DNA of 64,000 bases from Eledone cirrhosa. Its lineage: Eukaryota. The notes below the pieces were generated by a model that did not search any database, had not been told where the DNA came from, and worked only from the letters and a program-made list of their open reading frames with translations. This document shows, in pieces, positions 3,336 through 60,999 of this stretch. The stretch spans positions 253,208,001-253,272,000 of the forward strand of contig OZ024740.1 of assembly GCA_964016885.1 (NCBI GenBank). The letters run 5' to 3'. Each line of letters begins with the position of its first letter. Position 1 is the first letter of the stretch. The translations under genes were made by a program, and so were the position numbers.

Positions 3336-4072
3336 CCTTGAGTGGACTGGCAACTCTGTTATATATTATTAGAGGAAAATAGAGACAAATAAATTGCATT
3401 GTTACGAAAAAATAATTTTCTCTGATAGCAAATGAACATGTTTTCATCTGCACCCCTATAATGCTTAAACACGTAAGATAGAAATCTGATTTTATTTTAT
3501 TGCTCTCTCTCTCTCTCTTTTCTTGCTCTATCTCTCCTCTCTCTCTTACTCTTACTTGCTGTCTCTCTCTCCCACTTCTACTCAATGAATTCTTATACAA
3601 AGTTCTCTTATTCGATTGTTTACTTTCAACTACTCCCAGTATGTGAGTGGCCAGAAGTAAATATAAGTTTGAAAAACTTGTTGAAACTATAAAACGAATG
3701 AAATGGTAAAAATGCATTACATAATGGAGTTATGAAACAAAAACTATATTTTAAACGACACTTAAACCATTTTAAACATCAAAATATTAAAACTTCATAA
3801 ATATATTTAATACTCATGAGTATTTCAAAACCTCACCATCTAAACATAATGTGTTGATTAGCAACCTCAGCTTATAAACGGGTTTTCGATTTTTGCCCAT
3901 TTCTCAAGCATAAAATAGGAGTTTAGATTATATTTAGATCAGTTGATATTTGAGTATATATGGTAATGTCTCTGTTATGTCTAATTTAGGGAAAATAGAA
4001 AAAATAGAGAGGATAACAAACTATTATCAAAGTAACGCCCTCTGGTGATGTCCAGCAGAAGCAAGGGGGCCA

Positions 4073-4116
4073 ACCGTCTATGCATTTCAGGCTTAACTGG
4101 TCTTCGTCAGGACGGT
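4073..4116 (-). ncRNA. Type I hammerhead ribozyme (inverted copy)
   Basis: Reverse complement accgtc-CTGACGA-agac(cagttaa)gcct-GAAA-tgc-ATA^gacggt; one stem II mismatch. Confidence 0.75.
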
Positions 4117-4408
4117 CCCTCCCACCGCTTGCGACTGCTGGACTAGAAAACAGCTGAGAATATATACTTTCTCGTCTGAGGTGATTAATCTCATTTGATA
4201 TGAAGCTGCATAAGGCTCAAATTACGAAATATTTATACATATTGTATAAAGCTATGCTTGAAGCGAAATCCTATTTCTTTTTTATTATAAGTTGAGCCAA
4301 CTTATGCAGCTTCATATGCAAATGAGATTAATCACCTCATTTACACAGACTAGAAAAGTATATATTCTCAGTTGTCTTCTAGTCCAGCAGTCACAAGCGG
4401 TAGGAGGG

Positions 4409-4452
4409 ACCGTCCTGACGAAGGCCAGTTAAGCCTGAAATGCATAGACGGT
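4409..4452 (+). ncRNA. Type I hammerhead ribozyme
   Basis: accgtc-CTGACGA-aggc(cagttaa)gcct-GAAA-tgc-ATA^gacggt; palindromic stem III ATGCAT; stem I extended by gtccagcag/ctgctggac. Confidence 0.9.
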
Positions 4453-4580
4453 TGTCCCCCTTGCTTCTGCTGGACATCACCAAACGTTGTTTGCATAGCT
4501 ACGGCTTCCTAAAATTGTATTTCTTTGGAGATACGAAATATTTATACATATTGTATAAAGCTATGCTTGAAGCGAAATTC

Positions 4581-4644
<64 letters not shown>

Positions 4645-4678
4645 GAAGAAATTAAAAGATGGTTAAAAAAGTTCCATA

Positions 4679-4748
4679 TATTTTATTATGCGCATTTCGA
4701 AAACAACATCATCCTGGGACAAAAATTGTGTTCTCATCAGATAAAATA
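4679..4748 (-). ncRNA. Type I hammerhead ribozyme
   Basis: Reverse complement tattttat-CTGATGA-gaacacaat...gttgttttc-GAAA-tgcgc-ATA^ataaaata; about 40 nt from (TA)n. Confidence 0.85.
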
Positions 4749-5731
4749 AGGTAACATGATATGAGGCCTAAAAACACTTGTCAACAGGAATATTTTAATA
4801 AATATTATAGCATCTACTTATTCTGACAAAAATCGAAATATCTAATCCTCTGCAAGTGGTGGAAATTTGTTATACTCTGCGCGTTCCATAAAAGGGAAAT
4901 AACTCGTCTCTCATCTCTATTTACATATTTGAACTGAAAAATCAATACATTATAATTTCGATTTTTGCACTTGGCGTGGGTCGATTTGAAAATTTGTTTG
5001 ACCGATGTCTCCGCCGGACCTTCATCTATAAGTGTAGTAATTTCACCGAAATTTGAACATACGGTTTAGGAGGAGATGTGTGCCGACGGTTTTAGTAGAC
5101 AGACAGAAAACCTCAGATATAGATAGATTATTATTATTTTTTTTATAAAAACCGCTAAATGCCTTGTAACAACCCCTTCTCACAAGCTCCTTTGCTATGA
5201 TCTGGATATATGTTTTAAATATAACATTTATATGATCAGATTCATACACTGGAGAACTGAATTTTTATTTTCATTTCTTTATTTCACTGCTTCTGTTTTT
5301 AAGCACACTTTTCATCACTTTAAAATGTAATAACACCAGACATGATGTTTTTTTTTATTTTTTGCTTTATGAGTCTGACCTGTATTATGTCACCTTTTGC
5401 TCGTTTGTATTTGAATGATTACAACATCTATGCTCCTGAGCAGCGGACCGGTCTCCAGTATATCTATTGAGGCACAACCCTCCCTCCTACATTGAAACAT
5501 TCATAGAGTAAAATAATGTTGTAAATCTTAACTGGTTATTCATTGTTATTTTATTAAAATTTTGAGCTCTGCAGTTCATACCATAACAGTCCATAACGTA
5601 GTCTACAGAGGTTGAAAATCATCCAGCCTTTTGGATTACTGATTGACCAAGGATACTGATTAGCATTGAGCTTCTATAATCTTCACGAGGATATATATTG
5701 ATAAACTCTAATATAACTTAACATACATATA

Positions 5732-14892: not shown

Positions 14893-14949
14893 ACACTATG
14901 CACATTTCAGTGGCCAGGTTGCGTAAGAACCCATGACCTCATCAGGTGT
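14893..14949 (-). ncRNA. Hammerhead ribozyme motif (imperfect stem II), probable PLE 3'-end remnant
   Basis: Reverse complement acac-CTGATGA-ggtca...tggccact-GAAA-tgtgc-ATA^gtgt, about 50 nt from (TA)n. Confidence 0.6.
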
Positions 14950-27797: not shown

Positions 27798-27837
27798 TGA
27801 TATTAATAAATGGAAACTATATTTATAAAACCTCATT

Positions 27838-27898
27838 TATTCTATTATATATATTTCAAGGGTACCAACACTTTGGTACGCTCTCATCAGATAAAATA
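27838..27898 (-). ncRNA. Type I hammerhead ribozyme in a ~160-bp PLE-2-family 3' fragment
   Basis: Reverse complement tattttat-CTGATGA-gagcgtaccaa..ttggtaccctt-GAAA-tatat-ATA^atagaata. Confidence 0.9.
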
Positions 27899-27971
27899 CA
27901 AAGTTTGTTTTATAAATATTGACAAATCCAGGAATAAGATCTTAACGGTTCAAATTTTTCCTGGATACACA

Positions 27972-28699: not shown

Positions 28700-29966
28700 T
28701 CATAAACCAAATGAAAACCAAATGAAAACCTCAAATATGTCAACAGACACTCCAACCACCCTAGGAGCATAATTAACTCAATAGTTAAAAGCGTTTCCTA
28801 TAGAGTGTCCACCCTGTCGGTAAATGGAACTATCTTCAACCAGCATGCGGAATACTATAACTCCGCACTTGAAAAAGCTGGTTATATTGAGAAGATATCT
28901 TACAATGGCCTAACTAGAAACGCAACGCCGTTAAACCTAATCAGACCCTTAGAAACACGCATAGACGACGACACCACACTTAGAACAAATACTAACCTAA
29001 GACTCTCTTTAGCCGACAGGACAGGCAGCGTTACACACAACTGCCAACTAGATATAGCTATACTCTCCAACCACAATAAGGACTCTGAACATCGCACGCG
29101 TATACGTAATAATAGAAACCCGAGACATAACGCAAATAGAATAGTAGGAAACCCTACGACAAATACGCCTGACCAAAACGCACCCACGCAACCACCAAAC
29201 CACAACAACCATACTAAACACCGTAAAGCCCGAAGTAGACCTGTGACATGGTACGTTGCCACCAATATAACGGGAACCTTCTTCAGAGCTCTGGGACAAT
29301 CCTTCCCACCCACACATAAATACCACAAGCTCTTCAATAGACACACTGTCAAATTCGCTTTCTCCACAGCACCAAATCTAGGCGATACGATAGCACACAC
29401 TAATAGGACAAAAATACGCAAACAAATGGTAGCTCCACAACAAACCACTAGCACAACCCAGAACGAAACGACACACACAATACATCACAACAACCTACAT
29501 GCCAGCTCCACACAGAATACGAACAACCGACAACGTGCCATCAAACCTGTAACCCCCAACTGCAACTGCAAAAAACGGGTAGAATGCCCACTAAACAGGG
29601 AGTGCCTCGTTAAAAACATTATTTACCGGTTCGATGTCACAGCAGGCAGAAAAGAGTGCCCCTATATAGGTGCGACCTCGACTACGTTTAAGGAAAAACT
29701 CCTTTAAACATAGGCTCAAACGATCCCAAACTAGACTGGCCGATTTGATCTGGGACCTCAAAGACAAGAACATCGAATTCCAGATCATATGGTCAGTTAA
29801 AAGACGCGTGGCCCAACTCCCCAGTGACAGAAACCACTGCAGGTTATGCCTGGCCGAGGTGGCTGAGATCATTAAATTGAAATCTGCCATAAACTATAGG
29901 TCGGACATAATTAAAAATTGTAGACACACCAGGTTGAACACCTTCTCTGCACAAACATTTGGCTGA
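28700..29966 (+). pseudogene. PLE RT thumb, linker and GIY-YIG endonuclease, frameshifted near 29700
   Basis: KPNENLKYV..SNHP, CNCKKRVECPLNRECLVKNIIY, YIGATSTTFKE, CRLCLAE, CRH. Confidence 0.9.
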
Positions 29967-31445: not shown

Positions 31446-31595
31446 TATGTAATATTTATAAATATATATATATATATATAAGTATGTAATATATATAAGT
31501 ATGTAAAAAATGAAATTTCGTTTAGTTTTTTTCCGTTTATATATATATATACAATGATATTAACTAAATGGAAACTATATTTATAAAACCATATT

Positions 31596-31656
31596 TATTC
31601 TATTATATATATTTCAAGGGTACCAAAACTTTGGTACACTTTCATCAGATAAAATA
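31596..31656 (-). ncRNA. Type I hammerhead ribozyme (PLE-2)
   Basis: Same motif as 38556-38616, on the reverse strand. Confidence 0.9.
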
Positions 31657-32815
31657 CGAAGTGTGTTTTATAAATGTTGACATAACCAATGTTGACATAA
31701 CCAATGTTGACATAACCTTAACGATTCAAGTTTTCCTTGGATAGTGAAGGGTAAGAAAAGTCAGATATTTCAAATTGTTAAAATGAGTATGCAAAGGAGT
31801 ATGCAAATGAGGTTGAGGTAAAGGGCTGAAAAAACGTTATTTTAGACGCTATGGAGAATTTAAATAATTATGATATGTGTTTGTATGCGTAGGAAAGAAG
31901 AGAAAGGAAGAAGAGCTAGTATTTACGTTAATTTGAGGGGAAAAGGTGGAATATGATTCCAGAGTTTAAATTTTAATTTATTTACCTATATTATGAGTTA
32001 TAATATTGTATATATAATCAATTAGATTATATGAAGAATTATGGTTGTAAGTATTTTTATCTTATTACATTACAATAGGTTATATGTATATAAATATTTA
32101 TATAGATTAATAATTACGTATGTATTAGTATTATAGAAATAGAAATAATTTACAATTATTAGTTGTTTATATTTCTAATATGAGTTACGAAGGAAGTTGA
32201 TTTTGTATTTTACATAAACAAATAGGTGGTTCAAGTTTTGAGAGGAGAACAATTTGTAGATTCGAATATTTTGTTCAACATTGAAAATGTTTTCAGAATA
32301 TTGTTAATTTAGCGAAGTTATATAGATTATCATACATAATATGTTTATGTTTGCACGATTGAGAAAGGAAAGATAACTCCAATTTTGTTTGTTAACCGTT
32401 AAATTTGATGAGGGATTTACTCAAAAATATATAGAGAAAATTATATATTATTTTGCGTGAGATTAATTATTTTAGTCGAAAGATGTGTGAATGTTTGAAT
32501 ATCAACAAGAGAGGAAAAACGAAATGTGCTTTTCGAAGAACTATTGTAAAGAGGTTAAATTTTCAGATTATCAATCTGATTATGCATCTAAAAAAATATA
32601 TTTAGAAGGGTGTCATTAGAAAAATAATGTCAGAATTAAAAATATTAAATATATATATTTAAAAAAATTAATGTGAAAAGGTAAAAATATTAGAAATATT
32701 AGAGATATTTAAAAAAATTAGAAATATTAAAAATATTAAAAATATTAAAAAATTAAAAAAAATTATATTTAAATTTTTAAAGAAGGTAGGATCATTTTGA
32801 AGGTGTATAGGAATA

Positions 32816-34545
32816 TTATAAATTAAAAATAGTTCTGAACGTGGAATTTTGGCGATGTCTGCAAGAAGAAAATAATTCTGTTCTAAGATTAATAGAGTTT
32901 TGACAGTTAATTATATAAAAAATTTCTTCGATATACAAGTTAAAGAATCTTGATAAAGCCATATTTCGGTATGCAGGTGCTTTCGAAATCGTTCTCCAAG
33001 ATATTGAATAGTCTATATTGTTGTCTTTTAAGTTCCAAATTGGATGTGAAAGTGAAGTAGAAGATTTTTTATCAGATCTCCTAAATGCGTGTTTATGGTT
33101 ATTCCAGCGTTCTTTGAATGTTGTTGAAGTGGCACCAATATAATTAAATATTTTGTCTCTAGTTTTAACTGTGCATTTATACACTACGTTTTTGTCTAAA
33201 CAATTATTTTGTAAAGGGCAGTTTGATTTGATTCTATAGTTACATTTTCTGGAGTTGTTGTTCGGAACGGTACTATTATTCTGAATATTGTTGGTAAAAA
33301 TATTATTATTGCTATTTTGGTTAGTTTGGTTAGGGTTTAAATTTAAGTTCCTATTATTAATTCTATTTATATTTTGTGCTATGTTCATAGTAGGATAGTT
33401 TTATAGAGTGGTATTTGTGGGCTTTAGGAAAACATTTATCTAGTGCTTTAAAGAATAGCTTTGCTGAAGGTGTTAACGCGTAATGAGAATGGGGGAGAGT
33501 ACCAAATAATATTTCTAGTTCTAGTTTTTTTGTTTGGTTCAGTGTTTATGTTAAATTGTTGATTATTATTATAATTAATACTAGGAGGATTTGTCATTTA
33601 ATTTTATTCGAGTATCCTGCTCTATGTAAAGCTTCATTATAATATTCAGCCTTATCATAAAAAATATTTTTATTAGCAGAGATGTGTGAAATCCGTTGTT
33701 GGACGCTATTGACAATAGTGTTTTTAATACTTCTAGGATGATTAGAATTGAAACTTACATAATTTAGATTTTCGTTAATTTTATGGAAAGGATAGTAAAG
33801 ACCTGTCTAAGGTTTAAGGTTACATCTAAGAAGTTAACGAGTTTGTACTTATTCTCTATTTCTAACTTAAGGTTGTAGTTGTTGAAAAATTGTATTATGG
33901 ATTTCCTTTTCCTATTAAATTCACTATTGCTATGGTTTTCAATTAAAAGCAGTATATCGTCACAATATAAACACCCGGTCATCTCTGGCATTTTCCTATG
34001 CAGTACATTATTAATAAATAATCCAACGAGGTCCGTTACTTGCGCCGAGTCAGATGATCCCATAGTGATATCAAAATTGTTTTTTCTGTCGGTTATTGTC
34101 CAGTGATGATTATTAAATTCTATTAGTGTTTTACATGCTGTTAGAATTATATTCATATCATCACTAAATAGGTCTGTATGTTTAGACGCGTAGATAAGTG
34201 CCTTAATAAGTAAACTAGAGGTAATAGAGGAGTTGTAATTTACAATATCCATTTGAATGAATGTTTTGTTATGATTTAATTTTATGTTATTGAACCAATC
34301 TATAACTTCATTAGTACCGTTCCATAGTTTAAGGTGTGATTTTTCTTTAAGTATAATATAATTCTTTATAATTCTATCTAATATATGTTTGCTAATTATG
34401 CCTAAGTCCGAATTAAATGGTGCGATGAGTCTGACTGGTAGTTCAAATTCAAAATTTGTTTGTGGTCCTTCATGTTAATTTTCGGTTTTCTAGGTATAAA
34501 GGGTTCAGTCCTAATTTGTATGCCTAATTTATAAATAATTTCAGA
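32816..34545 (-). pseudogene. PLE RT plus GIY-YIG (inverted, truncated, frameshifted copy)
   Basis: ORFs 33764-34252 and 32816-33388 nearly identical to 35976-36464 and 36833-37408. Confidence 0.9.
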
Positions 34546-35024
34546 ATTATTTCTATTTCTATAATACTAATACATACGCAATTATTAATCTATATAGATA
34601 TTTATATACATATAACCTATTGTAATGTAATAAGATAAAATTACTTACAACCATAATTCTTCATATAATCTAATTGATTATATCTACAATATTATAACTA
34701 CAATATTAACATATAGGTAAATAAATTAAAATTTAAACTCTGGAATCATATTCCACCTTTTCCTCCAAAATTAACGTAACTTCTTCCTTTTTCTTCTTTC
34801 CTACGCATACAAACAGATATCATAATTATTTAAATTCTCCATAGCGTCTAAAATAACGTTTTTTCCGCCCTTTACCTCAACCTCATTTGCATACTCATTT
34901 GCATACTCATCTTAACAATTTGAAATATCTGACTTTTCTTCTCTTATCCCTTCACGATCCAAGGAAAACTTGAACCGTTAAGGTATTTTCCTAGGTTATG
35001 TCAAAATTTATAAAACACACTTCG

Positions 35025-35084
35025 TATTTTATCTGATGAAGCGTACCAAAGTTTTGGTACCCTTGAAATATATATAATAGAATA
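35025..35084 (+). ncRNA. Type I hammerhead ribozyme in the 5' pseudo-LTR, ~140 nt upstream of the ATG
   Basis: tattttat-CTGATGA-agcgtaccaaa..tttggtaccctt-GAAA-tatat-ATA^atagaata. Confidence 0.85.
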
Positions 35085-35222
35085 AATATGGTTTTATAAA
35101 TATAGTTTCCAGTTATTTAATATCATTGAATCAGTTATAAACATTTATATTTGAATATCCCTTCTGCTTATAAATATCTCATTTAATGTTGAGCACTTTA
35201 AACTATAACTGATTGCAAAATA

Positions 35223-37408
35223 ATGGAATTCTTTAGGATTTCTTCTTCTCTAAAAGATGTACCCTTACCTAAAAATAAGGAATATCTAAAACAACTCATT
35301 GAGAAATCTGACTCCTTTATACGAAGACTTAGATGTCGTGCTTTCCATTTTGATAGAAAATCGGATCACAAAATAAATAAATCCAGTTACAACTTTGATC
35401 TTATCTTCAAATCTAAGAAGAATCCACCTAGCAACAAATTACTAGCCGAATTTGAAAATGAAGTAATATCTATTATACAAAACATTAAATAAAAAAACAA
35501 AACAATTTATAGGCCAGGAATAATATAGACAATCTAGAAAAAACTAAAAGGATCCTCATAAAATCTGATAAAACAAATAATTGATATGGTATGGAAAAGG
35601 GCAAATATAATAACCTTATATTGAAAGAAGTCAGAAAAAAACTACAAAATAACATCAAATGAAGATCTTTCAACGTTAAATAGAGAAGCTTCTGAAATTA
35701 TTTATAAATTAGGCATCCAAAATAGGACTGAATCCTTTATACCTAGAAAACCGAAAATTAACCCGAAGGACCACAAAAGAAATTTTGAAATTGAACTACC
35801 AGTCAGATTCATCACACCATCTAATTCGGACTTAAGCATAATTAGCAAACATATATTAGATAGAATTATACCATAACTTAAAGAAAAATCACACCTTAAA
35901 CTATGGAACGGTACTAATGAAGTTATAGATTGGTTCAATAACATAAAATTAAAACTTAACAAAAAATTCATTCAAATGGATATTGCAAATTACTACTCCT
36001 CTATTACCCCTAGTTTACTTAATAAGGCACTTATCTACGCGTCTAAACATACAGACCTATTTAGTGATGAAATGAATATAATTCTAACAGCACGTAAAAC
36101 ACTAATAGAATTTAATAATCATCACTGGACAAGAACCGACAGAAAAAACAATTTTGATATCACTATGGGATCATCTGACTCGGCGCAAGTAACGGACCTC
36201 GTTGGATTATTTATTAATAATGTACTGCATAGGAAAATGCCAGAGATGACCGGAGGTTTATATCGTGACGAGATGTTGCTTTTAATTGAAAACCATAGCA
36301 ATAGTGAATTTAATAGGAAAAGGAAATCCATAATACAATTTTTCAACAACTACAACCTTAAGTTAGAAATAGAGAATAAGTACAAACTCGTTAACTTCTT
36401 AGATGTAACCTTAAACCTTAGACAGGTCTTTACTATCCTTTCCATAAAATTAACGAAAATCTAAATTATGTAAGTTTCAATTCTAATCATCCCAGAAGTA
36501 TTAAAAACACTATTGTCAATAGCGTCCAACAACGGATTTCACGCATCTCTGCTAATAAAAATATTTTTTATGATAAGGCTGAATATTATAAGCAGGATAC
36601 TCGAATAAAATTAAATGACAAATCATCCTAGTATTAATTATAATAATAATCAACAATTTAACTTAAACACTGAACCAAACAAAAAACTAGAACTAGAAAT
36701 ATTATTTGGTACTCTCCCCCATTCTCATTACGCGTTGACACACCTTTAGCAAAGCTATTCTTTAAAGCACTAGATAAATGTTTTCCTAAAGCCCACAGAT
36801 ACCACTCTATAAAACTATCCTACTCTACTACTATGAACATAGCACAAAATATAAATAGAATTAATAATAGGAACTTAAATTTAAACCCTAACCAAACTAA
36901 CCAAAATAGCAATAATAATATTTCTAACAACAATATTCAGAATAATAGTACAGTTCCGAACAACAACAACTCCAGAAAATGTAACTATAGAATCAAATCA
37001 AACTGCCCTTTACAAAATAATTGTTTAGACAAAAACGTAGTGTATAAATGCACAGTTAAAACTAGAGACAAAATATTTAACTATATTGGTGCCACTTCAA
37101 CAACATTCAAAGAACGCTGGAATAACCATAAACACGCATTTAGGAGATCTGATAAAAAATCTTCTACTTCACTTTCACATCCAATTTGGAACTTAAAAGA
37201 CAACAATATAGACTATTCAATATCTTGGAGAACGATTTCGAAAGCACCTGCATACCGAAATATGGCTTTATCAAGATTCTTTAACTTGTGTATCGAAGAT
37301 ATTTTTTATATAATTAAATGTCAAAACTCTATTAATCTTAGAACAGAATTATTTTCTTCTTGCAGACATCGCCAAAATTCCACGTTCAGAACTATTTTTA
37401 ATTTATAA
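35223..37408 (+). pseudogene. PLE polyprotein (N-terminal SLKDVP region, RT, GIY-YIG), disrupted
   Basis: SLKDVPLP..FIRRLR, SDKT, FDITMGSSDSAQ, GLYRDE, VNFLDVTLNL, CPLQNNCL..VVYKC, YIGATSTTFKERW; several frameshifts and stops. Confidence 0.95.
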
Positions 37409-38555
37409 TATTCCTATACACCTTCAAAATGATCCTACCTTCTTTAAAAATTTAAATATAAATTTTTTTAATTTTTTAATATTTTTAATATTTTTAATAT
37501 TTCTAATTTTTTTTAATATCTCTAATATTTCTAATATTTTTACCTTTTCACATTAATTTTTTTAAATATATATATTTAATATTTTTAATTCTGACATTAT
37601 TTTTCTAATGACACCCTTCTAAATATATTTTTTTAGATGCATAATCAGATTGATAATCTGAAAATTTAACCTCTTTACAATAGTTCTTCGAAAAGCACAT
37701 TTCGTTTTTCCTCTCTTGTTGATATTCAAACATTCACACATCTTTCGACTAAAATAATTAATCTCACGCAAAATAATATATAATTTTCTCTATATATTTT
37801 TGAGTAAATCACTCATCAAATTTAACGGTTAACAAACAAAATTGGAGTTATCTTTCCTTTCTCAATCGTGCAAACATAAACATATTATGTATGATAATCT
37901 ATATAACTTCGCTAAATTAACAATATTCTGAAAACATTTTCAATGTTGAACAAAATATTCGAATCTACAAATTGTTCTCCTCTCACAACTTGAACCATCT
38001 ATTTGTTTATGTAAAATACAAAATCAACTTCCTTCGTAACTCATATTAGAAATATAAACAACTAATAATTGTAAATTATTTCTATTTCTATAATACTAAT
38101 ACATACGTAATTATTAATCTATATAGATATTTATATACATATAACCTATTGTAATGTAATAAGATAAAAATACTTACAACCATAATTCTTCATATAATCT
38201 AATTGATTATATATACAATATTATAACTCATAATATAGGTAAATAAATTAAAATTTAAACTCTGGAATCATATTCCACCTTTTCCCCTCAAATTAACGTA
38301 AATACTAGCTCTTCTTCTTTTCTCTTCTTTCCTACGCATACAAACACATATCATAATTATTTAAATTCTCCATAGCGTCTAAAATAACGTTTTTTCAGCC
38401 TTTTACCTCAACCTCATTTGCATACTCCTTTGCATACTCATTTTAACAATTTGAAATATCTTACTTTTCTTCTCTTATCCCTCCACTATCCAAGGAAAAC
38501 TTGAATCGTTAAGGTATTTTCCTTGGTTATGTCAAAATTTATAAAACACACTTCG

Positions 38556-38616
38556 TATTTTATCTGATGAAAGCGTACCAAAGTTTTGGTACCCTTGAAA
38601 TATATATAATAGAATA
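38556..38616 (+). ncRNA. Type I hammerhead ribozyme in the 3' pseudo-LTR
   Basis: tattttat-CTGATGA-aagcgtaccaaa..tttggtaccctt-GAAA-tatat-ATA^atagaata. Confidence 0.9.
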
Positions 38617-38802
38617 AATATGGTTTTATAAATTTAGTTTCCATTTATTTAATATCAGTTATAAACATTTATATTTATTGAATTACCAACAAATTGAATA
38701 TCCCTTCTGCTTATATACATATATATATATATATACATATATATTTATTATTCAAATTGTTAATAAATGAAAAATATTCTCATACTCGAAATATATATTT
38801 TA

Positions 38803-46452: not shown

Positions 46453-47890
46453 CATCATCATTTTATGTCCGCTTTTCCTTGCTTGCAAGGGTGGGACTGG
46501 TCCTTTTCAGCACCGCATCTCTCCATTCGTCATGATCCTTTGTCATCTCCTCTGTGAGCTTCAGCGATCTGAGGTCAGCTATCACCACCTCCGCCCATGT
46601 TTTTCGTGGTCTTCCTCTACTGCACCTTCTTTCCACCGGGATTTCTTGGCACTTCTTCACCCAGCGGTCATCTTCCATGGGCATACCAACGCAGTCTTCT
46701 CCCCCGCACACTACAGATTATTCCTCTTATACACAGTTTCACTCTCAACTCGTCCATGATTGGTCATTCACACACATTGATACTGCAAATCCATTGGAGC
46801 ATGCTTGCTTCATTTCTTTCCAGCCTCCGCATATCCTCCACGGTTGCTGCTCATGTCTCATTACCATGCAACATCTCACACAAGCATCAGTTGGCCTTTC
46901 ATCACATTGGGAGAAACCCAATCTAGATACTAAGGCCTTGGAGCATCGTCCTCCCTTGCTAATTTGATCACCTAGATATTGGAAGCTATCAACCACCTCT
47001 ATAGATTCTACCTGCATTTGAAAAATGTGTCTATCACTGACACTCTTCTACAATCAATTTTCCCTGAACATCTACTACATATGAAGTTTTCCTTTCCTGT
47101 TAGTTTGCAGGCTATCCCACTACATCTCTTGTGTACCCAAGATCTGCATTGTGTACATTCTACAGAATTTATGCCAACTCCTTTTCTACATATCAAACAT
47201 GGCCATTTCCCTGATGGAATCAGAGTTTTGTCTTCTTTCCTTACTTATCAACACTTCATTCTTAGCTAGGTTCACTCTCAGTCCTTTTGATTCCAACTGC
47301 TGTTTCTATAGTCAGAATTTATTTTCTAGCTCCTCTACTGATTCTGCTATAACAACCAGATCATCAGCATAGAGAAGTCCCCATGGGCAGCCAGTCTTAA
47401 ACTCCTCTGTTATGGCTTGGAGAACTATAATGAATAAAAGTGGGCTGAGGACCAAACCCTGATGAACTCCTACTTGTATCCGGAATTCCTCACTAAACTC
47501 CATTCCTACTCTCACTTTACTGACAGATCCTCTGTACATAGCTTGTATTGTTCTCACAAGCCATTCCTCTACACCTGGTTTCCTTAGGGACCACCAGATG
47601 ACAGATTGGGGTACCCTATCGAAGGCCTTCTCTAGGTCAACAAAAGCTAAGTATAGTGGCTTATTCTTCTCTAAGAACTTCTCTTGTAGTTGTCTCACTA
47701 AGAAGACGGCATCAGTTGTACTTTTCCCAGGCACAAAACCAAACTGCATCTCATCTACTTTGACTCTTTCTCTAAATAGTTGTGCTAGCATTTTTTCTGT
47801 CACTTTCATAACTTGATCCATCAGTTTTATGCCCCTATAATTGCTCCTCTCCAGAGCATCTCCTTTACCTTTGTAACAATTAACAAGAAT
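46453..47890 (-). mobile_element. 5'-truncated RTE-clade LINE
   Basis: ORF 47312-47821 with QFGFVPGKST, FVDLEKAFDRV, GVHQG..LSP, LYADD; PHD-like 47008-47196; RGRPRKTW; short (TGA)n tail. Confidence 0.92.
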
Positions 47891-47923
47891 TGAGTTATAT
47901 TTGAAATGTGTGCGTGTGTGTGC

Positions 47924-48029
<106 letters not shown>

Positions 48030-48040
48030 AATATAGAAAT

Positions 48041-48095
48041 GGCTTCTACAGGATTAGAACAACAGTTTCATTCGAAGGAAATCATCAGGAAAGCC
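48041..48095 (-). ncRNA. Degenerate hammerhead in an older PLE 3'-end relic (from 48025)
   Basis: Reverse complement ggctttc-CTGATGA-tttc..gaat-GAAA-c..GTA^gaagcc; homologous to 48865-48915. Confidence 0.5.
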
Positions 48096-52291: not shown

Positions 52292-52336
<45 letters not shown>

Positions 52337-52525
52337 TAGAAGTTAATATGTCCAGGGATACTAGGTACCCCTAGAAATACATAGGTTGTCTATGATTCAA
52401 GGTTGTTCAATGGTGTTAATTTGATACACCAGAACTTTAATATTAAGATAAGCAGAACAAGTAAAATTCAATCAATTTTTCAAAATACATTAAAAAATTT
52501 AATATAAATATTTACCTCTTCTAGT

Positions 52526-52608
52526 GGCCCTTACTGATCAGTTTCGCTTTGTAAAACCTCATAAATCCGATGGATTTATGATGGAAAACCAAAGCTCATC
52601 AGAGAAGC
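52526..52608 (-). ncRNA. Type I hammerhead ribozyme
   Basis: Mirror copy of 52938-53020. Confidence 0.85.
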
Positions 52609-52937
52609 ATTTTCCCTTCCTAGGGCTAAACGTCCCAGGAACGACAAAATATACAACCTCCTGCCAGCTAATAAAGGTCTGAAAGGTCGTAAAAGTGACC
52701 CGTATGTAAACTGGACCGAAGTAAAAGCGGGAAAATCAAAGACTTGCTGTCTACAATTACTACTAAAAAAATAGCAGCCAAGTAGAGCAACAGATTTGTT
52801 CTCAACGGACGGAGAAAAAGGTAGAAGTTAATATGTCCAGGGATACTAGGTACCCCTAGAAATACATAGGTTGTCTATGATTCAAGGTTGTTCAATGGTG
52901 TTAATTTGATACACCAGAACTTTAATATTAAGAAAAT

Positions 52938-53020
52938 GCTTCTCTGATGAGCTTTGGTTTTCCATCATAAATCCATCGGATTTATGAGGTTTTACAAAGC
53001 GAAACTGATCAGTAAGGGCC
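52938..53020 (+). ncRNA. Type I hammerhead ribozyme with 50-nt stem II
   Basis: gcttct-CTGATGA-gctttg..tcataaatcc(atc)ggatttatga..caaagc-GAAA-ctgatca-GTA^aggg; palindromic stem III ACTGATCAGT. Confidence 0.85.
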
Positions 53021-53099
53021 ACTAGAAGAGGTAAATATTTATATTAAATTTTTTAATGTATTTTGAAAAATTGATTGAATTTTACTTGTTCTGCTTATC

Positions 53100-53149
<50 letters not shown>

Positions 53150-54127: not shown

Positions 54128-55292
54128 TTAGCCATCGGACTTTAACACTGGCTTAAAGTGTTTGAATGTTGCAAAGTTCTTGTGCATGCAGTTCGGGCAG
54201 TGTTCAGAGAGTTTGTTCAGTAGCGGGCCCTTGGCGAATAAAATTTCGTAGCTCTCTGAAATACAAAGGTCGCAGCCCTTGTGTCCTCCGTTGTAAGAGC
54301 GCGCTTTCTGGAGTATTAAGCGTGAAGGGGGTGGAGTTCCTTTTGAGGTCCCAAACGTAGGAGGCGAGTGTTGTCTGATTTGATTTATCCGGTCTCCTGA
54401 AGGAGTGGGTATGGGCATACCAACTGGTCTTAAAGTTGTTGGAGGTCATGCCGATGTAAGTTTTTTTTGCAATCCTCGGTGCCTGAGATGACATCGCATT
54501 TGTATACGATGTCATTTGTGAGGCATTTGTTTTCAAGTGGGCATGCTTCCTTATTTAGGCAATTACATAGAGCCCCAGTCCGGGGATTGGTTTCGGAGGT
54601 GGTTGGCTTATTTAGTTTAGAATTGTGGTTGGCTATATTCCTAGCTAGGTTAGGTGTGGTGGAGTAAGACAGTCTTATAGTGTTCTTATTAAAGATGGTG
54701 TAGTACCTATGTTGTATGGGGAAGTGTAATTTCAGTAAAGTGAAGAAAATCCTAGCTATCGGAGTAGATACCTCTCTATTGAAGGGAGGGTTGTACCAGC
54801 TAATCTGCCTATGTCTATTCCTCCTCTGCAATCTTGCGGTGGTTTCTAGGTAAGTTATCTTATCTTTAAATCCGCTACGGGCTAGGGCGTCATTGTAGTA
54901 GGAGGCAGATGCATTAAAAATATCTTTGTTGGCGGAGAGGCCAAATATTCTAATAGAGACGCTTTTTACTAGGTTATCAGTGATGTTTTGGGGGTGGTTT
55001 GAATTAACATTAATATATTTAAGGGACTCGTTAGGTTTGTGGTACGGGTAATAGAGGGAAGTATCTAGATCGAGAGTGACATCTAAGAAGTTGGCCCTAG
55101 TCAAATTAGAATCTATAGTTATACTAAATCCTAGATTAGAGAAGAAAGAGCTTAAGTTTTTCCGAAACCCATCGGTGGTTCTGGGGCTAACCTTATGCAG
55201 GGCGAAGAGGCCGTCGTCTCGGTATAAACCTCCAGTTAGGCCGGTAAAGAGGTTCTTCAGGTTATGTAGGATGTACAGGCCCACAAGGTCGC
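54128..55292 (-). pseudogene. PLE RT (from motif B) plus GIY-YIG, frameshifted
   Basis: GGLYRDDGL, NFLDVTLDL, SNHP, WYNPPF, CNCLNKEACPLENKCL, YIGMTSNNFK, CDLCISE. Confidence 0.92.
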
Positions 55293-55453
55293 TAAAAACA
55301 TAAATAAATAAAAATAAAAATAAAAATAAACTATAGCTTTAGCTTTTAATGAATTCCCTTTTCTATCAACCAATGACCTGCACCCATCCCACTCCCCACC
55401 CTCTCCTACCACTTGTAGAGACCTATAAATACCATATTTATTTTTTGATACCC

Positions 55454-58541: not shown

Positions 58542-60999
58542 ATGGAAAAACAATACTTGGGAACTTCTTTAAAGAATATACCATTACCTTCTAAGGATGA
58601 TTTCTTACTTCTTATGATACAAAAAACCAACCAATTTATCAGAAGAGTCAAATGGAGGGCCTACCACTTCGATAAAAAATCAAAATGTACAGATAGGAAA
58701 TATCTGTATGATTTCACTACATATAAAAATCCACCACACAACTCTTTACTTGAAAACTTTGAGAAAGACCTTTTTAATTTAATCAAATACCTCAAATTTA
58801 AGAGGTATAAATCTAACTTTCAAAAGGACCTTGATTCTACCCTATTGGACCTAAAAAAAATCTAAAAAAATCTAAAAAAATCCATGTCCACTCGGACAAA
58901 ACTGGAAACCTATATCACATGGATATTGAAAATTACAATGAGTTCATATATAAAGAACTCAGGAAAAATTATAGAAAAACAAATAATGCGTCACTTACCA
59001 ACATCAACAACAAAACACACAGCATAGTGAATAGACTTAATATTGAAGATAGAACTGAACCTTTGGCATTGAAAAACCACACTTCAACCTGAAAGATCAT
59101 AAATCCAACTTTAACTCTAATCCTTCTATAAGACTTATATGCCCTTTCCAAATCTGATATTGGAATAATTAGTAAAAAATTTTTTAGATAGAGTCATCCC
59201 ACAAATAAGAAAACATGTTAATTTACCACTCTGGGAAAACACATCCCAGGTAATTAACTGGTTTAATAATATTATATATAAATCCTCTGCTTCATTTCTA
59301 CAATTTGATATAGATAATTATTATTCTTCTATATCACCTATACTCCTGAACAAAGCGTTGATATTTGCTAAAAATAGATCTAACTTAACTTTGGATGACA
59401 TTAATATTATTACACATGCTAGACTAACACTACTGGAATTTCAGAATGAATACTGGACCAGAAACACATATAGTAATATATTTGATATTACTATGGGCTC
59501 AAGCGATTCTACCCAAATTACTGATTTTGTGGGCCTCTTTCTTCTTTTTAACATAAATGCTTCCTTTCCCCCCCTTAAAGGTGGTTTATATCGTGACGAC
59601 TGTCTTCTTCTTTCCAATAACCTTAGCCTCTCAGAGATAGAAAAAAATAAAAAGCTTATTAGAACCTTCCTTAAAGACTATTATAGTCTAGATATTACAT
59701 TTGAAAGCACAAGTAAAGTAGTTAATTTCCTAGATATAACATTAAACTTATCTACGGATATCTACCAACCTTACCATAAACCCAACCAAAATTTACACTA
59801 CATACACTCACAACTTAATCACCCTAAATCTATCCTTAAAAACCTTGCATATAATATATCACTTAGAATTTCTAACCTTTCGTCTAACCAAGATGTATTT
59901 GATAAAAATGCGACCTTTTATAACGAAGCTCTAGCTAGAAGTGGCCACAAAAATAGATTAGTATATATACCTTCTACCAATAATACTACAAACATACAAC
60001 CTAATATTACCAACAAACACCAAATGAAACGTACACACCTAAATGCCACTCACACTATACCCCAAAATACCAACATAAAACCAAATTTCTCTAACTCTTC
60101 TAATATACAGTATAGTAACTCTCAAAAAACTACTCATCCTACAACTCTAATAAATGTTAATAATAAAACTCCTAATAAACAAGCTAAAACACCTAAATCA
60201 ATAAATCTAATTAAAAATGTGTGTGGAGAGGTCATTAACAATAATTCTCCTAGTAAACATCAGGATGCATCCTATAAAAACAATAAACAACATAGAAACC
60301 GACGAGTTACTTGGTATAATGCTCCATTTAATTTACAAGTTAAGGATAATATACCTAAAAAATTCTTTAATATCCTAGAGAAAAACTTCCCGCCAAACCA
60401 CAAATACCATCAAATCTTAAATAGATCAACAGTTAAATTCTCCTACTCAACAACCAAAAACATAAAACAAAATATAAGTGCCTATAATGCATATAAATGT
60501 AAAACACCCATAAGTATACCACCAGTACATCAAACTAACCATAATATCTCCTCAGATACAGGATTCACGAAAAGTTGTAACTGTAGAAACAAGGCAAACT
60601 GTCCATTAAAAGGAAATTGCCTTGTTAATAACATAATATATAAATGTAAAGTTAACACTAAGGACTCTATTTATTCATATATAGGAGCTACCTCTAACAA
60701 TTTTAAGGTAAGATTTAATACCCACAAACATAGTTTTAAAAATACCGCACTAGCTAATACAACATCTCTAGCTGAAAAAATTAATAGTTATAGAAAGAGG
60801 AATATAGAATATGACCTGACCTGGAGTGTGCTCAAAAGGGCCACCCCTTATCAAAATAGTAGAAATGAATGTAGATTGTGTTCCCAAGAACTTTTCGAAA
60901 TAATGAAATCTAAGGATATCCTATTAAATAAGCGATAGGAATTAATAATATCGTGTAATCATAAACTGAGAAAAACATTTAAATATTATAAACCTAATT
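58542..60999 (+). pseudogene. PLE (Naiad-like) polyprotein RT plus GIY-YIG, few disruptions
   Basis: GTSLKNIPLP..FIRRVKWRAYHF, SDKTGNLY, FDITMGSSDS, GGLYRDDCL, CNCRNKANCPLKGNCL, YIGATSNNFKVRF, CRLCSQE; frameshifts ~58860-59180; TAG at 60936. Confidence 0.95.

Follow-up and report, generated by a model that had tools for sequence, protein, structure and literature searches.

Is a hammerhead-bearing repeat that lies head to head with an inverted copy of itself a distinct class of mobile element, or does the inverted copy record the way in which a simpler, non-coding element was inserted? The question is raised by a short locus at positions 4033-4643 of a 64,000-nt stretch of Eledone cirrhosa DNA (the window), for which an earlier note had proposed, together with a second element near 52.3 kb, a general class of fold-back retrozymes. 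We consider it probable that the locus is an insertion of a non-coding, hammerhead-bearing family with a 323-nt unit, likely a non-autonomous Penelope-like element (PLE), or animal non-LTR retrozyme, copied in trans, and that the inverted arm was likely made during insertion and is not part of the element.

All parts of the layout described earlier, [inverted B]-A-x-B(hammerhead)-y-A-(TA)n, are present. An inverted head-to-head arm (4033-4224, minus strand; unit positions 66-270) is followed by a direct arm running on the plus strand from 4223 to ~4590, of which 4223-4586 amounts to ~1.15 units of the 323-nt family unit and ends at the long (tailed) 3′ end, and then by a (TA)n microsatellite (4587-4643, no strand), the inferred target. 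The core of the inverted repeat measures 137 nt and is 93% complementary. The upstream copy of repeat A (4223-4277, plus strand), a remnant of the previous tandem unit and the equivalent of a pseudo-LTR (pLTR), is 5′-truncated at the inversion junction, where it overlaps the inverted arm by 2 nt; with the copy at 4532-4586 it forms a direct repeat of 55 bp with one mismatch at a spacing of 309, so that the 54-bp repeat and the spacing reported earlier are borne out. The left edge has to be moved from 4043 to 4033, because the 14 nt that the plus arm lacks between 4484 and 4485 are partly kept by the inverted arm. It is also because of this deletion in the 323-nt family unit that the period at the locus is 309; the previously described 309-nt monomer is thus real at this position, but as a damaged copy rather than as the unit of the family. 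Further downstream on the plus strand lie the short-end hairpin (4541-4559), the loop of which marks the short 3′ end at unit positions ~17-20, and the tail of ~45 nt between the short and long 3′ ends (4551-4590).

The window copy is an atypical member of its family, as its inverted arm ends at unit position 270, which is neither of the standard 3′ ends, and not at the short one; this minor end occurs three times among the segments of 150 sampled loci. Close to the inversion junction, over a span of 70 nt, the inverted arm has lost 3, 1, 8 and 1 nt in four small deletions. A target-site duplication (more than 4 bp when present) is unreadable within the (TA)n flanks. Matches to miRNA models of Rfam at 4000-4900 were dismissed as artefacts of the inverted repeat. 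The same (TA)n is faced from the other side by the end of an unrelated repeat with a hammerhead core at 4740 (4640-4805, minus strand), relatives of which, 80-84% identical, occur at four sampled loci (L040, L045, L065 and L090), in some with inverted arms.

The ribozyme motif is an extended type I hammerhead (4382-4475, plus strand), as judged from folding, cofolding and covariation with a sister subfamily. It consists of the core (4415-4421), helix II (4422-4436), GAAA (4437-4440) and helix III (4441-4444), with cleavage predicted after 4446 and an extended stem I that reaches ~4382/4475, which agrees with the earlier description of a canonical hammerhead with extended stem I; it lies ~117 and ~161 nt upstream of the two 3′ ends. 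The fold has a z-score of -2.25, and none of 200 shuffles folds equally well. Helix III is palindromic, with predicted dimer pairing, and two copies of the motif cofold through this palindrome at -45.3 kcal/mol versus 2 x -20.8 kcal/mol, which predicts a dimeric fold. No Rfam match in the window reaches the gathering score, and no hammerhead model matches 4000-4900 even with E relaxed to 10. Across 22 sequences including the sister subfamily, the stems stay paired in 87% of cells, with compensatory changes between subfamilies, and their covariation score of 0.279, versus 0.177 for shuffled data, is reached by none of 500 shuffles; the core columns of this set are fixed by the search pattern, and the number of double-change pairs (7 of 19) is unexceptional, being equalled by 96 of the 500 shuffles. 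At 60 loci not selected for the hammerhead, non-CpG change amounts to 3.7% in the 42-nt motif versus 3.3% in the rest of the unit (p = 0.36), and to 2.1% versus 3.5% in the catalytic core (p = 0.055); the motif is thus no better conserved than the rest of the unit, and equal decay is expected for dead copies of a few donors.

The inverted arm holds a second, antisense hammerhead with one mismatch in helix II. The locus thus has one hammerhead per strand, where the "active" class of Li et al. (2026) has at least two in tandem, and therefore no unit-length RNA release is expected. According to the predicted pairing, the ribozyme of a read-through transcript would be enclosed in ~190 bp of duplex. 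Because of the single hammerhead per strand and of arms that are predicted to form this long duplex, the window copy is likely an inert, dead-end product.

Turning to the family, its unit is 323 nt long with a GC content of 0.437 and one type I hammerhead, and its size, lack of a reading frame and multiple copies fit the animal non-LTR retrozymes with which it had been compared. In the 3.0-Gb assembly, the exact 42-nt hammerhead core is matched far more often than by chance (268 times, versus 0 for the reversed control), the exact 19-nt short-end hairpin 885 times (5 for the control) and an exact 28-nt 3′ piece 252 times (0 for the control); the earlier note had named a single-copy locus as fatal to its reading, and the locus is clearly not that. 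A DNA search, in which 40 of 1,886 first-look candidates were scored, gave best matches of 90-93% identity. The 150 loci sampled comprise the 30 best matches, 60 hammerhead-pattern loci and 60 loci with a 3′ pattern that carries a minor allele; each set of 60 follows genome order (the hammerhead set from the first 100 matches listed), loci already sampled being skipped, and together the two sets form the 120 pattern-sampled loci. Copies differ from the majority sequence by a median of 3.2%. The exact 42-mer rate yields copy-number estimates of 1,855 and 3,591, which are biased upward because hammerhead-pattern loci already fetched were omitted from that sample, so that only the order of magnitude is retained.

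Of the genomic copies and tandem arrays that the earlier note had proposed to count, the former are plentiful, the family being dispersed over loci on the order of a thousand, and the latter are represented by short forms. A gapped pattern that demands an exact match to a 17-nt piece of the hammerhead in each unit finds 49 direct dimers genome-wide, and the 40 that were fetched contain 1.2-2.7 units, 37 of them under two. No two of the 49 dimers are consecutive, and no long array was found in the assembly, which may collapse arrays. Folded as a circle, the majority unit is far more stable than its shuffled versions (z = -8.2), and the window copy gives z = -3.9; the circular monomer envisaged earlier is thus well structured, as predicted by folding. 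A relaxed hammerhead pattern recovered, in 16 of 30 fetched loci, the older sister subfamily, 67-82% identical and with its units laid out in the same way; five loci show direct repeats at spacings of 326-342 nt, and several have inverted arms. Two sequencing runs of unrecorded kind also contain the repeat and its neighbours in many variants, which has no bearing on expression. At L073 (3110-4556), a family insertion shows alternating arms that repeat at a 530-nt period, which suggests local duplication of a whole two-armed insertion, and a further type I hammerhead, at L086 (3090-3175, plus strand), lies beside a family copy within a palindromic repeat; its helix III is long and its stem I extended.

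The anatomy of these copies bears directly on the origin of the inverted arm. At the 150 loci, 229 of 267 segments stop at one of two sites ~45 nt apart, a short end at unit positions 13-28, which sits in the hairpin loop, and a tailed end at unit positions 54-72. At the 60 hammerhead-pattern loci, a tract of at least (TA)3 adjoins 74 of the 96 short or tailed ends (45 of 50 tailed, 29 of 46 short). The 5′ ends are scattered and truncation is variable, with no enrichment of the cleavage site. A template with its 5′ end at the hammerhead cut was considered and rejected, since only 5 of 85 5′ ends in a 3′-anchored sample fall at unit positions 214-231, close to the uniform expectation, a result that by itself is compatible with uncleaved RNA as well as with a circle. 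Of the 120 pattern-sampled loci, 79 have a head-to-head arm and 41 have none, and the extent and junction of the arm differ at every locus; the junctions overlap by 0-9 nt in 74 of 106 cases. Where both ends of a two-armed insertion fall at these sites, one is short and the other tailed in 65 of 69 cases (binomial p = 3e-15 against 50%).

The two arms of an insertion differ by 4.5%, versus 5.9% between loci, and share rare variants ~8 times more often than arms of different loci; they therefore come from one template lineage. In a paired comparison at 56 loci, divergence between tandem units of an arm equals that between the two arms (medians of 4.9%, p = 0.84), and rare variants are shared at similar rates in both comparisons, which fits repeated copying of one monomer and also a freshly made, uniform multimer. 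A pooled difference between tandem units and arms (6.5% versus 5.0%) was discarded, being confounded by locus age and gone in the paired test.

These observations can be accommodated in the following scheme. A PLE protein with reverse transcriptase (RT) and GIY-YIG endonuclease domains would bind a multi-unit or circular RNA of the unit, and the endonuclease would cut both strands of a (TA)n tract. Each free end would then prime reverse transcription inside the RNA, at the hairpin loop (giving the short end) and ~45 nt further 3′ (giving the tailed end), possibly aided by a few bases of TA/UA pairing; in the window, the hairpin at 4541-4559 would correspond to the first priming site and the end of the tail at 4551-4590 to the second. 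Both cDNAs would pass the hammerhead site, stop at random and be joined head to head through 0-9 nt of microhomology. A more specific version, which we put forward tentatively and rate below even chances, regards the 323-nt unit as a genuine parasite in the form of circular RNA: a PLE dimer would reverse-transcribe it, priming from each of the two cut target strands at a fixed site of its own.

The first alternative is that of distinct fold-back retrozymes, in which the inverted arm either belongs to the element or arises by self-priming of the first cDNA, the latter having been proposed for the inverted junctions of PLEs (Arkhipova et al., 2013; PMC3846280). It draws on the arm being found at 79 of 120 loci, on the rare variants common to both arms and on a layout that recurs in two unrelated families. 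However, an arm that is missing from the other 41 loci, and whose length and junction are specific to each locus, hardly looks like a part of the element. If the first cDNA folded back, one arm would be contained in the other. In the 51 short-plus-tailed insertions of the pattern samples, 21 are nested in this way, as predicted, but 17 are mutually non-nested, and in the remaining group of 13 the longer, short-ended arm also holds a copy of the tail. The lengths of the two arms show a weak correlation (Spearman 0.33, p = 0.016), with differences of either sign. Two separate primings fit the 17 non-nested insertions better than fold-back and explain all three groups of arms, while the nested ones and the weak length correlation leave self-priming for at most part of the insertions. 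Together with the presence of the same arms on ORF-bearing PLEs, including one in the window, and in published PLE structures, this largely refutes fold-back retrozymes as a class, and we hold it quite improbable that they account for the locus.

The ORF-bearing PLE in question occupies 31470-38748 and has the layout of the locus: an inverted arm (31470-34558) with a short end, a hammerhead-bearing partial tandem, an interrupted ORF, a further hammerhead and a long end. Its hammerheads lie at 31648 (minus), 35033 (plus) and 38564 (plus), a 45-mer from them has 340 exact matches in the genome, and its inverted and direct arms stop 52 and 103 nt past the cleavage site, respectively. In a sample of 30 loci of this family (26 after removal of duplicates, ends read by eye), six of eight inverted pairs have one short end abutting (TA)n and one arm that runs on, and the other two have one irregular end each; no pair ends short at (TA)n on both sides. 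Another end with a related hammerhead occupies 27798-27967. The inverted pair of a Neptune-like, ORF-bearing element (L135) likewise combines a long with a short end. A Neptune-like family with long open frames is represented at L121, L122, L126, L128, L129 and L132, where no hammerhead core was found in the short 3′ region. A control family (P0002), in which open frames of 834 amino acids occur, also has inverted pairs, which end in microsatellite-like sequence that resists sorting into end types.

The element that the earlier note had placed beside the locus (52334-53106, minus strand) has a 485-nt unit and belongs to a young family, with copies 98-100% identical and arrays of up to ~15 units. 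As had been stated, it shares the layout of the locus and no similarity with it apart from (TA)n. Its 3′ ends lie 106 nt apart, and all six two-armed copies among 14 loci combine a short with a long end. The common layout of two unrelated families probably reflects insertion machinery of a common type. Over ~40 nt, (TA)n included, the short end of the 52.3-kb family is similar to the long end of the 35-38 kb PLE, which may point to a partner for this family. We also would like to point out further motifs and remnants in the window, namely a hammerhead motif at 14945 (minus), PLE coding remnants at 28715-29945 (plus) and 54131-55338 (minus), and a LINE-type reverse-transcriptase fragment (PF00078) at 47312-48067 (minus).

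A second alternative keeps the PLE and dispenses with the non-autonomous family: the copies would be 5′-truncated ends of an ORF-bearing PLE whose pLTR contains a tandem 323-nt repeat. Most PLE insertions are indeed 5′-truncated, and pairs of hammerheads on opposite strands, 100-700 bp apart, have been ascribed to truncated PLEs (Cervera and de la Pena, 2014; PMC4209133). The copies are short (median arm length 217-281 nt in the two pattern samples), and tandem repeats do occur in the 3′ region of a PLE at 59-61 kb of the window. That region carries CTGATGA motifs and a microsatellite-like end, and the accompanying ORF piece of 589 amino acids (59169-60938, plus strand), which gave no Pfam match, has RT and GIY-YIG motifs and a CxCX5C linker; its family is very abundant and has open frames of 834 amino acids elsewhere. 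Against this reading stands what lies upstream of the copies. Within 1.2 kb of 53 free 5′ ends, no same-strand match to any of 16 ORF pieces of this genome occurs, and the flanks do not continue into a common sequence from any fixed point. At 93 of the 150 loci an arm connects tail, spacer and hammerhead without a break or an intervening ORF, and the previous unit is therefore what lies upstream of the ribozyme; the restriction of homologues to the termini of ORF-bearing PLEs, which the earlier note had named as evidence against it, is thus not what is seen. The longest copies, of up to 2.7 units, repeat the unit only, the sister subfamily has the same unit layout, and none of 56 ORFs at the 60 hammerhead-pattern loci that has an RT or GIY-YIG match continues into the element. 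All 30 loci fetched by the 19-nt hairpin are plain family copies, whereas the ORF-bearing family extends at least 450 nt upstream into the body of the element at 7 of 30 loci. An RT and GIY-YIG ORF, the mark of an autonomous PLE, is absent from the family copies examined. We therefore regard truncation of a larger PLE as very unlikely.

The preferred reading, a family moved in trans by the protein of another element, would call for a partner PLE and a donor. The genome is rich in PLEs, endonuclease matches being abundant. The unit has no match in 50 GIY-YIG loci and the PLEs of the window, a sample of few of the many PLE families of this genome. Hammerhead scans of the same 50 loci and the window, and 60 motif-selected loci (from the 19-nt hairpin and from a relaxed hammerhead pattern excluding the family), likewise gave no ORF-bearing partner. 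Among the loci sampled, then, no ORF-bearing PLE with the unit as its terminus was found, nor any long tandem donor in the assembly, and both count against the trans-copied family.

Long inverted repeats and TA targets are typical of MITE-like and foldback DNA transposons. A self-priming palindromic DNA repeat of this sort, with the hammerhead a chance or passenger feature, is hardly credible, for although the locus has both these traits and the 42-nt motif is no better conserved at 60 loci than the rest of the unit, equal decay is expected for dead copies of a few donors, fixed 3′ ends with ragged 5′ ends are a signature of reverse transcription, the two termini are not mirror images, and stems I and II covary between subfamilies.

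The family is thus best filed, judging from its sequences, as a new family of animal non-LTR retrozymes, a non-autonomous PLE derivative, rather than as a new fold-back class. What it adds is mechanistic, since a known Penelope insertion signature is here found on another retrozyme family. How PLEs build inverted and tandem insertions is described as an open question (Craig et al., 2021, PMC8557442; Frangieh et al., 2024, PMC11167929), and short copies free of ORFs allow both ends of each insertion to be read easily. Two testable rules emerge, namely that two-armed insertions have one short and one tailed end, and that often neither arm could have been copied from the other. The structure of the insertions also supports, beyond phylogenetic evidence, the proposed movement of animal retrozymes by PLE proteins. 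Should the reading as a circular parasite copied by double priming be true, about a thousand natural insertions would settle the choice between double priming and self-priming for Penelope-like elements as a whole, and the family would provide a minimal, protein-free substrate for reconstituting PLE insertion. The literature within our search held no count of short/tailed pairing and no nesting test; most subscription papers and supplements lay outside its coverage, and supplements may hold the family or such counts.

As compared with the canonical metazoan hammerhead (Cervera and de la Pena, 2014; PMC4209133), a work that describes canonical and minimal forms and proposes a circular template, the motif has the same helix I of 6-7 bp, helix II of 4 bp and helix III of 2 bp with a palindromic loop. 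Differently from it, the first pair of helix II is A-U where G-C is conserved, the sister subfamily retaining G-C, and stem I is longer by ~20 bp. The Chlamys MRC1 elements (PMC8557442) are likewise ORF-less PLE derivatives with pLTRs and head-to-tail insertions. However, as that account has it, such derivatives generally show a likeness to an autonomous family at the 3′ end, and hammerheads are absent from most Chlamys, whereas here the hammerhead is present and no such partner was found among the loci sampled.

Retrozymes have been interpreted as non-autonomous derivatives of PLE pLTRs (Li, Clavereau and Pollet, 2026; bioRxiv 10.64898/2026.07.22.740005), non-LTR retrozymes having been defined by Cervera and de la Pena (2020; PMC7229834). 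The criteria for such elements include a unit of 150-450 bp, a GC content under 50% and no LTR, PBS or PPT. The present family resembles the animal members in its unit of ~300 nt, GC content of 44%, single type I hammerhead and absence of an ORF, in its strongly self-paired predicted circle, co-occurrence with PLEs and proposed PLE origin, and, at the family level, in having at least two tandem units with complete hammerheads. It differs in consisting almost wholly of dispersed, sub-dimeric copies. In the same preprint, families vary, with monomer fractions from 0 to 1 and 75% of them having at most seven units, and one of nine tested dimers was cleaved. Inverted arms and paired 3′ ends are not described in the parts of the two works available to us. 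Cleavage and circular RNA have been shown for some published retrozyme families; here cleavage is predicted from sequence and a circular RNA is putative.

The closest likeness is to the insertions of endonuclease-bearing PLEs, whose published structure includes direct and inverted pLTRs and an optional tail and for which action in trans has been considered (PMC3846280; PMC8557442; PMC11167929). A partial tandem, a head-to-head arm, a tail at one end and 5′ truncation are common to both, as are the (TA)n bias of the Hydra and Naiad clades and a hammerhead upstream of two 3′ ends; nearly all members of the Hydra clade, which is marked by the CxCX5C linker, insert into (TA)n (Craig et al., 2021). 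The family differs in being without the RT/GIY-YIG ORF and in its tail of ~45 nt versus 30-40 bp. In vitro work on an Anolis element (Frangieh et al., 2024) found two internal RT start sites that define the tail, extension of both strands, use of uncleaved RNA, no strand preference between the start sites and priming without target homology. In contrast, the ends of the family described here are paired, one short and one tailed, with TA microhomology at both.
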